Shown here piece after piece: positions 33,257-40,846 of a stretch of 64,000 nt of DNA. This DNA comes from Chloroflexota bacterium (GTDB lineage: Bacteria; Chloroflexota; Limnocylindria; Limnocylindrales; CSP1-4). The stretch lies in assembly GCA_030447745.1 (NCBI GenBank), contig JAUJOH010000002.1:119516-183515 (forward strand). The letters are read 5' to 3'. A program made the position numbers and the translations under genes. The stretch's first letter is position 1, and each line of letters starts with the position of its first letter. The notes beneath the pieces were generated by a model that searched no databases, was not told the origin of the DNA, and was given only the letters and a program-made list of their open reading frames with translations.

Positions 33257-33518
33257 CGCAGCCGGGCGCCAACGGCCGTCGCCGTCTTCGCGCGATGACC
33301 CGGACCCGTTCCAGACCAGCTTCGGAGGACCACGCCCGTCGTGGAAACCGGACCCAGTACGTCGGCGCCCGACCGGCCCGTCGCCCCGCACGGGGACGGC
33401 GGCGCCACGACCGGCGTCGGAGCCCCGGTCCGTCCCGCCCTCCAGCGGTGACCCACCGCCCCCGCTCGTCGGGGGCTGGACACCCGCGGCGGGACGGCCC
33501 GCCCGCGAGGTGCCATTC

Positions 33519-34778
33519 ATGCTCTATCTGAGCCAGGCGATCGGCCGGCCGGTGCGCGACGGCAGCGGCGAGCCGCTCGGCAAGGTCGCCGACCTCATCG
33601 TCGCCGTCGGCGAACGCTACCCGCCCGTCACGGGCCTCGTGGTCGCGACGGGCCGCCGCCGGATCTTCCTGCCGTGGTCGGGCGTCGAGCGGCTCGACGT
33701 CGACGGCGCCCGGCTGCGGACGCGGACGATCGACATCGGCGGGTTCCAGCAGCGGAGCCAGGAGATCCTGCTCCGCCAGGACCTGATGGACAAGCAGATC
33801 GTCGACATCGACGGTCGCAAGGTCGTGCGCGTCAACGACCTGCGCTTCGACGAGATCGACGGCCGGCTGCGGCTGGTCGCGGTCGACGTCGGCGCCGCCG
33901 GGCTGCTCCGCCGGCTGGGCATGGAAGGCGCCTACCGGATCATCGCCCGCAACCTCGGGCTCCCGCTTCCCGAGCGCTACATCGACTGGGAGGATGTGGA
34001 CCCGGTCGAGACGTCGATCGCGTCGATCAAGCTCCGCGTCCCGCACGCCGGGCTGGCGGAGCTGCACCCCGCCGACCTCGCGTCGATCATCGACCAGCTG
34101 GCGCCGCGTGACCGGGCAGGCGTGCTCGCCTCGCTCGACGACGAGCACGCCGCGGACGCCATCGAGGAGATGGAGCCGGACACGCAGGTGGAGGTGCTGG
34201 AGGACCTCGAGCCCGCAAGGGCGGCGGACATCCTCGAGGAGATGTCACCGGACGACGCCGCGGACCTCGTCGCCGACCTCTCCGACGAGGCCCGTGAAGA
34301 GATCCTCGCGCTGATGGAGCGGGACGAGGCGGCCGAGGTGCAGGAACTGCTCGGCTACGCGGAGGACTCGGCCGGCGGGATCATGACCACGGAGTTCGTC
34401 GCGGTGCCCGCGACCCTGACCGCGGCGCAGACGATCGAGCGGCTGCGCGAGCTCGAGCCGAACGCCGAGACGATCTACTACGTGTACGTCACCGACGAGA
34501 ATGACCGGCTCGTGGGCGTGCTCTCGCTGCGCGACCTGATCGTGGCGCGCCCGGACACGCCGATCGCGGGCGTGATGATCCCCGAGCCCGTCGCCGTTGG
34601 CGTGCTCGCCGACCAGGACGAGGTGGCCCAGGTGGTTGCCCGCTACAACCTCCTGGCCGTCCCGGTCGTCGACCTCGACGGCCGGCTGGCGGGCATCGTG
34701 ACTGTCGACGACGCGATGGACGCGATCCTGCCGACCGCCTGGAAGAAGCGCCTCCCCCGCCTCTTCGCGCGCAGTTGA
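33519..34778 (+). CDS. MgtE intracellular-domain protein (PRC barrels + MgtE_N + CBS pair, no TM domain)
   Basis: DKQIVDIDGRKVVRVND, LHPADLA, DSAGGIMTTEF, YYVYV and GIVTVDD. Confidence 0.88.
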   Translation: MLYLSQAIGRPVRDGSGEPLGKVADLIVAVGERYPPVTGLVVATGRRRIFLPWSGVERLDVDGARLRTRTIDIGGFQQRSQEILLRQDLMDKQIVDIDGRKVVRVNDLRFDEIDGRLRLVAVDVGAAGLLRRLGMEGAYRIIARNLGLPLPERYIDWEDVDPVETSIASIKLRVPHAGLAELHPADLASIIDQLAPRDRAGVLASLDDEHAADAIEEMEPDTQVEVLEDLEPARAADILEEMSPDDAADLVADLSDEAREEILALMERDEAAEVQELLGYAEDSAGGIMTTEFVAVPATLTAAQTIERLRELEPNAETIYYVYVTDENDRLVGVLSLRDLIVARPDTPIAGVMIPEPVAVGVLADQDEVAQVVARYNLLAVPVVDLDGRLAGIVTVDDAMDAILPTAWKKRLPRLFARS

Positions 34779-34898
34779 CGCGACCCGTGCCGGACGTGCC
34801 GTCCGTTCGCGACGCGGGCGCTGACGGGCCGGGGGGCGCGGCCCGGCGGCCAGCGCCGCGTGTCCTCGGGCTCCGCCAGCGGCTGGCGGACCGGCGAC

Positions 34899-35135
34899 CC
34901 CGATGAGGTGCGCCGCACCGGTTGCGCCGACGAGCTCGCGACCGCCCGAAACGTAGTCGTTGTGGAGATGGGTCTCGACGACATGCGTGATCGCGGCACC
35001 GTCCGCCGCGGCCGCGTCGAGATAGGCGTCGACGTCCCGCCGCGGGTCGATCACCGCGGCGATCCCCGCCTCGTCGTCGGTGACGAGGGTCGAGAGGTGC
35101 CCGAGCCCCTCGACCACGAACTGCTCGATCCTCAC
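34899..35135 (-). pseudogene. N-terminal fragment (~80 aa) of an MBL-fold hydrolase
   Basis: VIDPRRDVD and ETHLHNDYVSG. Similarity stops after HLIG. Confidence 0.75.
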
Positions 35136-35203: not shown

Positions 35204-35953
35204 CTACATCATCACCAGCCCGCCGTCCACCGCGAGAACCTGCCCGGTGATGTAGCGCGCCTCGTCGCTGGCGAGGAACGCGACGGCGTCGGCGACTTCC
35301 TCGACCGTCCCGAACCGCCCGAGCGGCGTGCGCGACGTGATCTCTGCCTTGAGGTCCTCGGGCAGGTCGCGGGTCAGCTCGGTCAGGACGAAGCCCGGGG
35401 CGACCGCGTTGCAGGTGATGCCGCGCGACGCCAGCTCGCGCGCCGTCGCCTTGGTCAGCCCGATCAGCCCCGCTTTGGCGGCCGAGTAGTTGGCCTGGCC
35501 CATCTGACCTGCCTGCCCGGAGACGGACGTGATGTTGACGATCCGCCCGCCGTGCTGCTTGAGCATCGGTCGTGTCACTGCCTTGGTCGCGTAGAAGGCG
35601 CCGAACAGGTTGGTCTCGAGGACCTCCCGCCATGTCTCCGGGGTCATCCGCATGATCAGGTCGTCGCGCGTGATGCCGGCGTTGTTGACGAGGATGTCGA
35701 CCTTGCCGAGCCCGTCGAGAGCCGCCCGGACGACGCCGTCCGCCGAGCCCGGGTCCGTCACGTCCGCCTGCGCGGCCATCGCCCGGCGCCCGAGCGCCTC
35801 GACCGCCCCGACGGTCTCGTCCGCCGCGGCCTGGTTGCCGCGGTAGCTGAACGCCACGTCGGCGCCCTGCCGCGCGAGGCGCAGGACGATCGCGCGACCG
35901 ATCCCGCGCGACCCGCCCGTGACGACGGCGGTCTTCCCCGTCAGGTCGATCAT
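35204..35953 (-). CDS. fabG: 3-oxoacyl-ACP reductase
   Basis: TGGSRGIG, NNAGITRD, YSAAK and VAPGF. Confidence 0.95.
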   Translation of the reverse strand: MIDLTGKTAVVTGGSRGIGRAIVLRLARQGADVAFSYRGNQAAADETVGAVEALGRRAMAAQADVTDPGSADGVVRAALDGLGKVDILVNNAGITRDDLIMRMTPETWREVLETNLFGAFYATKAVTRPMLKQHGGRIVNITSVSGQAGQMGQANYSAAKAGLIGLTKATARELASRGITCNAVAPGFVLTELTRDLPEDLKAEITSRTPLGRFGTVEEVADAVAFLASDEARYITGQVLAVDGGLVMM

Positions 35954-36007: not shown

Positions 36008-36705
36008 TCAGACCGGCGCCTCGCGCCGGGCCGGCGCCGGCTCGCCCGGCACGACGTCGTCGAGGGGCACGTCGACCGTCCCGGGCCGCTCGAGGACGGC
36101 GGCCAGGACGTCCGGGATCGCGTCGACCGAGTTCCAGTCGACGGGCAGGCGGACCGCCACGTCCTGCGGCCGGACGGCGGCGTCGCCGGCTGGACCGCGG
36201 GCGGGATCGGCCGTCCACTCGACCGTCACCGCGCCGGAGGTGAAGCCCGCGCCGAAGGCGACGATGCACACCCGGTCGCCGACCGCGACCCGCCCCTCGT
36301 TGACGGCCTCAGCCAGCGCGATCGGGACCGAGGCCGCCGACGTGTTCCCGTACCGGTCCAGGTTGACGAACATCCTGTCCATCGGAAGCCCGAGGCCCTT
36401 CGCCACCGCCTCGATGATCCGGATATTGGCCTGGTGCGGGATGAACAGGTCGACGTCGTCGGGCTGGAGACCGGAGCGCCGGATCGAGCCGAGGGCCGTC
36501 GTGGCGAGCGTCCGGGTCGCGAACCGGTACGTCTCCTTGCCCTCCATCCGGACGAAGTGCTCGCCGCGGGCGATCGTTCCGGCCGACGGCGGCGCCTTCG
36601 CGCCACCGGCCGGCAGCCAGATCATGTAGGCGCCCTGCGGCTCGGTCGTCAGCTCGATGCCGAGGCTGCCGCCGGGCTGGTCCGAGGCGGACAGCACGAC
36701 CGCCA
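36008..36705 (-). pseudogene. fabH: C-terminal half of beta-ketoacyl-ACP synthase III, fused in frame to a foreign ORF
   Basis: AVVLSAS, MEGKETYRFA, HQANIRI, GNTSAASVP and FGAGFT. Confidence 0.9.
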
Positions 36706-39100
36706 CCGCCGCCAGCCGCACGCGGCGCTTGATGACGTGGAACGCGGGACGGGCATTAGCCACGCCCCAGCTTTCAAGCGGCGAGACCGTAATCGCCGCG
36801 GCCCGGCCTCCTCCGCGCACGGTGGGAGCCGGAGGCCGGATCGCCATTTGCGGAGCCGCCGGTTGCGGAACTGGTGGAAGCGCCGTGGCCGGCGACGACG
36901 CTCGCGGAGAGAGCGACGGCTTGAGCGGCCCCAGCGGCGCTGCCGAAGGCGTTCCCGGCAGCGCCGGCGAAGGCAGCGGCACCTGCGCCGCGCCCATTGC
37001 CGGGATGGCGGTCAGCGCGCCCTCCGGCAGCGAGAAGCCAGCGGACGGAGCCTTCTTCTCGGACTCCTCGGCGCGCCGCGCTCTGTCCACCATGCTCAGC
37101 CGCAGCGGATTGGAATGGCCCGGCAGTGGCTGACGTCGGCGCGCGCCGCTGATTTGCGGCAACGGTGTCGCGCCGGCGGCGACACTGGGCGTTGGCCGGC
37201 CTGAAGTCGCGCCGGAGGTTGTCAGGGCAGCGCCGCGGCGGGGGCCGCGACGCGGGCCGGAAGCCACACGTGGCGCATCCGGCGTGGCGCGGTCGGCGTT
37301 GTCGCCCGACAGCGGGCGCTCCGTGGTGCGCGGTGGCGTGACACGTCCGACGCGTGGCCCGGTGCGGGCGCCGCGCGCGATTCTGCTGCCGGTCGCGCCG
37401 GGGACTGTAGCTCGTGACGAAGCGTCCGCGTTTGGGGCGAGGGTCATGCGGCCAGGGCCGAAGGCGGGCGCCGGCACGGAGTCTTTACGCGCCGGTCGCT
37501 CAGTAGGCCGTTCGGCGGGCAGCGGCAGCGCGCTCAGGCGCCGCGACGCGTTCGAAGTACTCGCAGTCGTTGGAGCCTTCGCTGGAGCCTTCGCCGGGCG
37601 GCGCGGCGGAACCAACGTTTTGGGGCCGGCGGATCGCCGCGGCACGACGGGCATAGGCGCTACCATCCGCGCCGGCGGCGCGATGTGCGTGAGCGGCGGC
37701 GCGACCGCGCAGGGCGCAAGGCGCGCCACGCGGGGCGCCGGCGACTTGACGGATGGGCGTTTGGCCGGTGTGCGGCGCTGAGCAGGGCGCGCGGCGCGGC
37801 GTGGCGTGGTGCGCTTCGACGGCGCGACAGCCTCGAAAGCGGGCGGCATCGCGCGCTCGAGCAGCGGCGTGGAGGGCACGGCCTGCGGCCCGGTCGCCCG
37901 TGGCTGCTTCGGGTTCGTCTTCGCGCTGGCTGCTAAACGCCCTTTGTTGCCGGACTTGCCACCGTTGGACTTGACGCCGTTGGGCTTGACGCTGGCGCTG
38001 CTGCGCGTGCCGCCGCGCGCCGCACTCTGCGCGATGCCGCCGGACGCGCCGGTGCCGCTCTCGGCAGACGCGGCGGCTGCGGCGCTTTGCAGTTGTGGAA
38101 TCCAGGTCGGATTCAGCGTGCGATTGGCGATGCCGATGGTCACCGGCTCGGCGCGGCCTTCGTTGTTCAGCGAGTCTATGGCCCGCGCATCCAAGCGATA
38201 CATTCCGTCGGGCACCAGGCGCGTGTCGAACTCAAACACATACGGAGGCTGGTTGAGCATACTTGCGCGAACCGTCTTGCCGATGCGCAGCGACCCATCC
38301 GCCGCCGGCGTGCCCGAACTGAGCGAAATCCACACGTATTTGATGCCGAACAGGTTGTCAACGGCCTTGAGCTGGAACTTGAACTGGTCTTTCAGCAGAT
38401 CGCCGTTGTGGACGTTGAGCCATTGCAGGGCGGGTGGCGTGGTGTCGGCGCGCTTGCCGTTGCTGATGTAAATCGAGACTTCCGCCTGGCCGATGTAGCC
38501 CTGAGTGTCGGTGACTTTGACGAGCAGTTTGTGCGAGCCGTCGGCGTAGCGCGTGGTATCGAACTTGAAGCCGCTGGAAGGCTGCGAGTTCAGCGGCACC
38601 GGCCCGCCCACCGTTTCCGAGCGCCCGTCCACGAAAATCTCGACCGTGCTGGCCGGATTGCCCCGCGACTCGACGGCGATCAGAATCGGCGCTTCCCGGC
38701 CTCGCAGCAGGTCGGCGTGGCTCGGCTGCAAAATGCTGACGACCGGGCCGACTTGGGCGCTGGGACGGATGCTCTGCGCCAGCAGCAGCGGCGCGTCCGC
38801 ACCGGACCCGGACGAAGCGGCCCCAGTCGCGGCGTCGGGCAGCACATCGGCCCACACGGGCCGCGCCGTCATCGCTTCGGCGAGCAGGCCGCCGGCCACC
38901 AGCACCCGGACGGCTCCTGCTCCGAGTACTCGATTTCCAAGCGTTCGACCATCGAACGATCGACCAAACGACACAATGGCCGGCGCGGCGATGATTGGCG
39001 CGGCGGTTGCGGCGGGCGCGGCTGCGGCGGGCGCCGGGCGTCTGGCGTCACGGTTCTGCAAAGCGCGGTTTCGAGAGCTGCGGGGTTGGGATGGCCGCAT
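36706..39100 (-). CDS. Foreign, 3'-truncated gene for a putative cell-surface protein: two Ig-like domains, long Pro/Ala/Arg-rich stalk, possible start of a LysM domain
   Basis: GGGAGGAGG SD; repeated FDTTRYADGSH / FDTRLVPDGMY; DTTPP; ends HVIKRRVRLAAVA. More A/T-ending codons than the flanks. Confidence 0.7.
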
Positions 39101-39212
39101 AGGCGATGTCCTCCTCCCAAGGCGAACGAGTCAGAAACGGGTCGGAGATGAACGGGCGCGGCGGGCGCGGCGACAAGCATCCGCCTGCTCCCGGCTGCTC
39201 GGGAGTGTTCTG

Positions 39213-40232
39213 GCTGCCGTCGCCAAACGGAGGATGCGGGATGTTCCGATCGGTGTAGTCGAGACGCCGCGCGTGAGCGTCTCTGCGCCGATGTCGTGGC
39301 GGCGTCGCCGTCTGAGGCCGCGGGCGGGATCGGCCGTGGCGACCCGTAGACGAAGCCCTGCCGGGCGCCATGCGTCATGGCGGCCGCGTTCCGGCCGACG
39401 GCCTCCTTGACCAGCGCGCCGTCGCGCGGCGTCCAGTAGTCCGGATCAGCCTCGCAGCTCGGATCAGGTCGATGTCCGGGTCGCCGTCCGGATCGCGCCT
39501 CATCACCGCGGCCATCGACGCGCCGTCGTCTCGTGCGCCGCCGCGGCCGTTCCGATCGGGCGCAGCCCGCCGGCTCCCTTGGTCCGGCGTCGACGATCCA
39601 CTCGTCGGATGGTGTCGGGCGAGGCCGACGTCGCGGAGCTGGGCCGGCGCGACACGCGTCCACTCGTGCGAGCGGTGTCGTCCATCCGTTCGTGGCGGCT
39701 CCACCGCGCCGGCCGGCACGTCGCCGGCTGAACCGGCGGCTGCTTCGCGACCAGCTGGCAGCTTTCGGCGACGACGCGCGGTGCGTCGACCCGGTTCATG
39801 CCGCGGTCCAGGCGGATCTCGTTGAACGCCGTCATTGCCTCGATCAGGTTCCGATCACCTGGTCGGCGGCGGAATGACGCGACCTTGGACGCCGGCAAGG
39901 ACGTACGGCGGCGAGCCGGGATCTCGTTGAACAGCGTCGTAGACGATGCCATGTCGGCGGCGCCTTGACCGATGACCAGGCCAGGGCGTCGATGGCATCC
40001 AGGTCCGGCGTCAGCGTGGCGACGTGATCGGAGTCGACGCGGCCACGGCGTCGACGTGCGCCGCCGCGACGCGCCGTTCGCGGATCCCGGTCCGGCTCAC
40101 GATCCACTCGTCGGATGTGTCGACCATCCGCTCGAGGTCGGCGTTCGTCAGGACGCCGGCGGGCGCGTACCGGCCCCAGCCGGTGACGTGCGCCCAGCGT
40201 CGCGGCGACAGCCCGGTGCGTCCGTCGTTCAC
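39213..40232 (-). pseudogene. fabH: N-terminal half of fabH, degraded and containing a garbled duplicate of the accB-fabH junction
   Basis: [27 protein letters not shown], later GFVYG and RLDYTDRN..FGDG in shifting frames. Confidence 0.8.
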
Positions 40233-40846
40233 AGCGGCTCCACCTCGATCAGCGGCTGCTTCGCCTTGACCAGCTGGCCGCTTTCGGCGACGACGCGCAC
40301 GACCCGGCCGGCAAGGTCAGACTTGATCTCGTTGAACAGCTTCATTGCCTCGATCAGGCCGATCACCTGGCCGGCGGCGACCTCCCCGTCGACGCGGACG
40401 TACGGCGGCGAGCCGGGCGCCGGTGAGGCGTAGAAGATGCCCGTCAGCGGCGCCTTGACCGATGGTCGGGCCGGGGCGGCAGTGTCGTCCGTGGCGGCCG
40501 TGATCGCCGACGCGGACCCCCCCTCGACGCCCGCGGCGGCCGGAGCGGCGGCCGCGGCCGCAGCGGCCGTAGCGGCGATGTCGGAAGGCTTCCGGAGGAC
40601 GAGCGACGTGCCCCCGGCGGCCACCTCGAGCTCCACCAGATCGCTCCGGTCGAGGACGCCAGCGAGTCGGTCGACGAGCTCCAGCAGCGACGCCGCCGTG
40701 CCGTCGACGGCAGGCTCCGTCAGGGCGGTGTCCGCGCCGGCGGCCGCGAGCGTCTCCGGGACCGGCTGGTCGATCGAGGTCGGGTCGCTGGCACCGGTCG
40801 CCGACGCGTCCGCCCCGGGCCCGGGGTCGTCGGTCAAGGCTGCCAC
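40229..40846 (-). CDS. accB: Biotin carboxyl carrier protein of acetyl-CoA carboxylase
   Basis: [10 protein letters not shown], thumb [10 protein letters not shown] and intact EAMK biotinylation motif. Confidence 0.92.

Follow-up and report, generated by a model that had tools for sequence, protein, structure and literature searches.

The window analysed here is a stretch of 64,000 nucleotides (C23:119516-183515) from a MAG of 2.43 Mb, made up of 26 scaffolds and 77% complete, that serves as a GTDB species representative in the Limnocylindrales (Chloroflexota). The same order and phylum are indicated by the names on the 87-88% identical FabH proteins. On the minus strand, the window carries, in this order, fabF, accB, the start of fabH, an open reading frame (ORF) of 1030 aa and fabG. 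Relatives of the same genus and family have the string fabF-accB-fabH-fabG, with an intact FabH of about 390 aa and no insert. The fabH gene is single-copy in this genome; in the relatives it is intact and belongs to a FAS II operon that is conserved and translationally coupled. The features of the locus are the following:

42099-40834, minus strand: fabF
40229-40846, minus strand: accB (biotin carboxyl carrier protein), clean host sequence (PF00364, E=1.6e-12)
40069-40232, minus strand: 5′ end of fabH, codons 1 to ~55 (MNDGRTGL...RERRVAAAH), clean, starting at 40232
39215-40068, minus strand: noisy, frameshifted copy of host sequence from 40538 to fabH codon ~208, delimited by local alignment to the clean copy
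39101-39214, minus strand: foreign 5′ untranslated region of 114 nt with a GGGAGGAGG ribosome-binding site, aligning with the upstream regions of Abditibacteriaceae orthologues
36706-39100, minus strand: foreign coding fragment of 798 codons (homologues P0002-P0004)
36008-36703, minus strand: 3′ half of fabH (AVVLSAS... to the stop codon), clean (PF08541, E=7.6e-36)
36008-39100, minus strand: chimeric 1030-aa ORF, the foreign fragment and the FabH C-terminal half in frame
35204-35953, minus strand: fabG, clean host gene, downstream (adh_short_C2, E=3.8e-69)

The start of fabH shares a GTGA overlap with the accB stop codon. Just downstream of fabG (34880-35135, minus strand) lies a gene for an MBL-fold hydrolase of which only about the first 85 codons can be read (MRIEQFVVEG...ETHLHNDYVSG...); past this point the reading frame breaks down and continues into mgtE, a convergent gene (33510-34778). 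Such a remnant may be another truncation or assembly fault.

When the locus is compared to the intact fabH genes of two relatives (G003 and G007), host similarity stops at ...LDYTDRN..FGDG (39215) and restarts at AVVLSAS (36703), with at most 6-9 host bases (the AGA codons) missing across both junctions. This confirms the break in the fabH similarity that had been noted between FGDG and AVVLSAS in an initial annotation of the sequence. The same annotation described a foreign piece inserted into fabH; its junctions are as described, but it overlooked that the N-terminal half is not intact, 40068-39215 being a degraded copy of host sequence. The insert has its own ribosome-binding site, as had been claimed (GGGAGGAGG, found 8 nt upstream of the ATG at 39100). 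We likewise recovered the 1030-aa ORF with the catalytic His and Asn of FabH, and not the Cys. Residues 874-962 of this ORF match the FabH C-terminal domain (PF08541, E=7.6e-36), with His (HQAN) and Asn (GNTSAAS) both kept, residues 119-193 give a weak match to Big_7 (E=4e-5), and neither LysM nor Cu_amine_oxidN1 was found in the ORF. The Cys-bearing FabH domain, PF08545, has no match anywhere in the 2.43 Mb genome; the equivalent DNA is frameshifted and out of frame with the FabH C-terminal half, and the Cys motif AACSGFVYG reads GARQGFVYG.

No transposase, terminal inverted repeats, target-site duplication or flanking direct repeats were found at 36706/39214, in agreement with the initial annotation, and insertion of a transposon or IS element was rejected on these grounds. 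The only ORF of the insert with homologues is the surface-protein fragment described below. The fusion protein forms a cluster with a single member on a single contig, and the fusion occurs in no independent assembly. With a query spanning the junction, all proteins retrieved were ordinary FabH sequences of at most 93% identity; neither the fusion nor an exact match to the host FabH was among them. As a separate matter, the 36008-36220 region and two relatives (L011 and L013) share a conserved FabH C-terminal extension of about 70 aa (EWTADPARG...PVDW.SVD.IPD...PLDDVVPGEP) past the usual end of KAS III.

The insert corresponds to the 5′ three-quarters of a gene for a surface protein. Its product begins with an Arg-rich N-terminus and a hydrophobic anchor, followed by two Big_7-type Ig-like domains (~aa 115-330) and a Pro/Ala/Arg/Ser linker of about 450 aa, and is cut at the first LysM strand (FHVIKRRVRLAAVA). 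Three homologues (P0002-P0004; 700-820 aa, 40-45% identical) have two Big_7 Ig-like domains, a long low-complexity linker, LysM and Cu_amine_oxidN1. In the alignment with these homologues, which has about 100 invariant columns at 40-41% identity, the break at 'AAITVSP...FHV' falls exactly at the LysM start, bearing out the two Ig-like repeats, the long linker and the break at the first strand of LysM that had been proposed from the sequence. Between the Ig domains and the 'AAITVSP..HV' motif, the foreign frame (2.4 kb) shows no flaw.

The insert is of foreign origin. All 17 of the loci related to it, in a scan of 185,579 species genomes, are from Abditibacteriota (Abditibacteriaceae, Abditibacterium and 'Armatimonadota bacterium' MAGs), and the 5′ untranslated and ribosome-site region aligns with the upstream regions of the Abditibacteriaceae orthologues L019 and L037. 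The earlier guess of a donor from another phylum, Armatimonadota-like, was therefore correct. The best genomic relative of the insert protein is 50% identical; no near-identical donor was found (best relatives 44-50% identical in protein, and 44-45% with the full insert as query), and no paralogue of the insert exists elsewhere in the host genome. An Ig-region fragment used as a query gave no matches, probably because it was swamped by low-complexity words. Composition also sets the insert apart. The higher share of A/T-ending codons reported earlier is reflected in a GC3 of 0.70-0.86, vs. 0.95 in the host and 0.91-0.96 in fabG, the C-terminal half of fabH, accB and fabF, and the tetranucleotide profile that had been suggested as a check ranks the insert 10th by distance among the 1871 windows of the genome. 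The related Abditibacteriota loci have a GC content of about 63%. Other compositional outliers of the genome lie at C23:44-47 kb, C22:72-77 kb and C4:1-5 kb.

The donor-type family is represented by the loci L019:4875-7157, L037:4535-6769 and L018:10001-12532. Its members have an Arg-rich N-terminus with an anchor, two Big_7 domains, a Pro/Ala/Ser/Arg linker of 300-450 aa, LysM and Cu_amine_oxidN1, and divergent genes for LmeA and an MscS-type channel are conserved upstream. By its distribution among the genomes scanned, the family is apparently restricted to Abditibacteriota; its members are probably peptidoglycan-tethered surface proteins. This family is the one piece of genuine biology here, present at the locus only as a truncated passenger.

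The sequence upstream of the insert is of a very different quality. Only codons 1 to ~55 of the fabH N-terminal half (40232-40069) are clean. The region from 40068 to 39215 is one contiguous degraded copy of the accB 3′ end and the fabH 5′ end, overlapping the clean copy by about 470 nt (from 40538): it consists of a degenerate second accB 3′ end (~40068-39713) followed by a frameshifted fabH N-terminal half up to FGDG. Alignment of the noisy stretch to its own clean copy gave 257 matches, 45 mismatches, 18 insertions (54 nt) and 5 deletions. The substitutions comprise 28 transversions vs. 17 transitions, and GC>AT and AT>GC changes are balanced (16 vs. 17), with no AT bias. Against G003, the noisy fabH N-terminal half reaches 65.6% identity, and the 533 columns of its alignment contain 14 indels, mostly non-triplet, whereas the C-terminal half is 87.0% identical at the nucleotide level with 0 indels in 669 nt and 91-93% identical in amino acids to intact Limnocylindrales FabH proteins. 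The values for fabF (81.6% identity, 0 indels in 1265 nt) and for the clean accB-3′ plus fabH-5′ segment (84.0% identity, no indels) against G003 are also those of clean sequence. By these comparisons, the noisy N-terminal and clean C-terminal halves of fabH have incompatible histories.

The noisy copy is closest to the clean copy of its own genome (75%) and about equally far from 60 relatives (66-73%, with 66-68% to the accB genes of the relatives), indicating that it derives from its own genome; an orthologue from another Limnocylindrales was rejected as its source on the same figures. The noise reaches within about 15 nt of the host/foreign junction and ends there, and the foreign frame beyond is flawless, so that the quality boundary coincides with the taxonomic boundary. 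Bacterial pseudogenes decay mainly through deletions, with many transitions and a bias toward AT. The noisy stretch shows the opposite spectrum, which resembles that of raw single-molecule reads and is non-biological.

The assembly is poor elsewhere in the genome as well. At C7:108001-108511 and 108653-109186, an adjacent direct duplicate of about 530 nt (94% identical, seven indels of 1-8 nt) lies in a dihydropyrimidinase-like gene, with a frameshift in both copies; the pair has the look of an overlap that was neither merged nor well polished. The tRNA-synt_2c domain of alaS (C19:59652-61245) is broken up into three adjoining segments, each in a different frame, so that this essential gene has two frameshifts. 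Exact gaps of 100 Ns occur elsewhere in the MAG. C12 carries a direct repeat (149230-149373 vs. 150681-150826, 1.45 kb apart) whose copies match perfectly over their first ~46 nt and at 85%, with several indels, from there on; this too may be a noisy duplicate. Within the FabH family, a Limnocylindrales-type FabH protein from a JGI metagenome (P0006, 459 aa) contains an internal tandem duplication of about 60 aa (MEGKETYRFATKTMATT...PMDRM repeated), probably another assembly artefact.

An independent view of the locus came from an Illumina-only Logan contig (L036; SRR24765285), found by a fabF look-up, that is 99.84% identical to 42675-40122 and stops before the problem region. The run comes from desert soil of the Qaidam Basin (Illumina/MEGAHIT data) and contains the same strain (PMC12624003). 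Four positions (42231, 42226, 40661 and 40146) distinguish the contig from the window, and the contig ends at 40122, 24 nt beyond 40146; this points to strain heterogeneity and low coverage where fabH starts. Short-read assembly of this population therefore fragments here. Exact-protein look-ups of fabG and mgtE gave no matches in independent assemblies. The name 'opera_contig' occurs on Abditibacteriaceae MAGs among the insert matches, and is only a lead as to the assembler of the present MAG.

Taken together, the locus is probably a chimera created by scaffolding or gap filling in a poorly polished assembly, itself probably a hybrid of short and long reads, and the actual chromosome of this Limnocylindrales organism most likely has an unremarkable, intact fabF-accB-fabH-fabG string. 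The insert is most likely an assembly mistake because it adjoins an error-ridden, duplicated stretch. We propose that a clean short-read contig would stop about 55 codons into fabH and that the unassembled middle of the gene would be filled with raw, error-rich single-molecule sequence running to FGDG. As the fill would begin some 470 nt short of the contig end, the accB 3′ and fabH 5′ ends would falsely appear twice in tandem. A contig or overhang of 2.5 kb from a co-occurring Abditibacteriota organism would then have been set before a contig starting at AVVLSAS. We infer this exact assembler behaviour, and the absence of the foreign piece from the real molecule, from the structure of the locus. 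A noisy copy that overlaps the preceding clean end by about 470 nt is a classic signature of an unmerged long-read fill, and the coincidence of the quality and taxonomic boundaries is expected for a fill abutting a foreign contig, and unexpected for a clean contig with a real insert. The insert itself is an undecayed gene fragment with arbitrary ends that has kept its donor composition. A chimeric assembly had been the preferred option from the outset, and the noisy duplicate, the unequal gene halves and the other assembly pathologies support it indirectly. Against it, the two junctions share a single position in fabH, where the host lacks 6-9 bases at most, as in a genuine insertion, and to arrive there as an artefact needs specific assembler behaviour; furthermore, the window has no N gap and no near-identical donor contig was found.

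Junctions at one point are also what a real and very recent insertion would give, in which illegitimate or end-joining recombination caught 2.5 kb of Abditibacteriota DNA at a double-strand break in fabH of this Limnocylindrales population and only the noisy duplicate is artefactual. Same-site junctions with almost no host loss, possibly with short microhomologies (GGCGG../GCGGTCGTG), an insert free of Ns and a donor-type composition all fit such an event; Abditibacteriota and this host are both found in desert soils, and a long read truly holding host, insert and host again would lead to an identical arrangement of contigs and fill. We nevertheless consider it unlikely. The insertion would knock out the only copy of a gene in a conserved, translationally coupled operon, the fusion (one cluster member, one contig) has no counterpart in an independent assembly, and the genome has other assembly faults (the C7 duplicate and alaS). 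Moreover, a clean contig with a real insert has no reason to begin exactly at the junction, where the noise stops. A much less probable explanation still is an old natural pseudogene, in which fabH was inactivated by tandem duplication and insertion and then decayed. The frameshifts and the divergence of about 25% in the duplicated N-terminal half would suit this scenario, but decay would strike the C-terminal half and the insert equally, and the former has 0 indels in 669 nt and the latter an open frame of 798 codons that keeps the invariant residues of its family. The spectrum, dominated by insertions and transversions with no AT bias, and the clean first 55 codons of fabH are also at odds with it. 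Natural decay of a dead gene cannot spare the C-terminal half, the first 55 codons and a 798-codon foreign fragment and at the same time produce, in the stretch between them, about 25% change and about 6 indels per 100 nt. Least probable of all is a sub-variant of the artefact explanation, by which a de Bruijn-graph chimera, arising within the short-read assembly via a k-mer common to the donor LysM region and the host FGDGAGAVVL region, produced the junction at 36705. The junction is GC-rich and the donor-like (CTGGCGGCGGTGGCG) and host-like (GGGGCGGGTGCGGTCGTG) sequences are alike; however, the visible similarity is imperfect and extends over ~10-17 nt, well below the usual k values, and the second junction at the same host position would be left unexplained.

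Under the preferred reading of a scaffolding or gap-filling chimera, the locus is a warning about data quality: a MAG serving as species representative holds one or more chimeric joins between phyla, and patches of raw-read quality besides, and calls such as a 'fabH pseudogene', a 'novel 1030-aa fusion protein' or 'HGT from Abditibacteriota' would therefore be spurious. Such artefacts have a practical signature, in which a compositionally foreign, perfectly clean block is abutted by a noisy tandem copy of the end of the contig before it. If, on the other hand, the junctions were real, which we think improbable, a Limnocylindrales population of hyperarid desert soil would very recently have captured a promoter-proximal Abditibacteriota fragment of 2.5 kb with no mobile element involved. 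This would be a rare case, caught in the act, of element-free illegitimate recombination between phyla into a core operon; the in-frame Ig-domain/FabH-C fusion ORF would have been seen before decay or amelioration, and fabH would be dispensable or backed up in this lineage.

The locus can be set against four known systems. Compared to FabH/KAS III proteins (PF08545 plus PF08541), the C-terminal 231 residues of the fusion are a normal FabH C-terminal half with His and Asn present, but the assembled fusion has neither an intact N-terminal domain nor the catalytic Cys; the 1030-aa product could therefore not be a condensing enzyme, and the fusion is not to be taken for a gene product. The likeness to the Abditibacteriota surface-protein family (e.g. 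P0002 and the YX2bin8 orthologue) extends from the N-terminus to AAITVSP..HV at 40-50% identity and includes the upstream ribosome-site region, whereas the insert stops before LysM and Cu_amine_oxidN1, is not accompanied by the usual upstream LmeA and MscS genes, and sits in a Chloroflexota scaffold. With the capture of foreign DNA by end joining (illegitimate recombination), the locus shares little host loss and the lack of a transposase, terminal repeats and a target duplication; it differs in having junctions known only from an assembly and, as its target, the sole copy of a gene within a conserved operon. Finally, both junctions at one host position are less typical of the random mis-joins seen in misassembled MAGs (inter-genome chimeras, un-merged contig/long-read overlaps), but the locus resembles these in having foreign DNA of donor composition and with arbitrary ends inside a host gene, an adjoining error-rich false tandem duplicate, and frameshifted essential genes and N-gapped scaffolds in the same genome.
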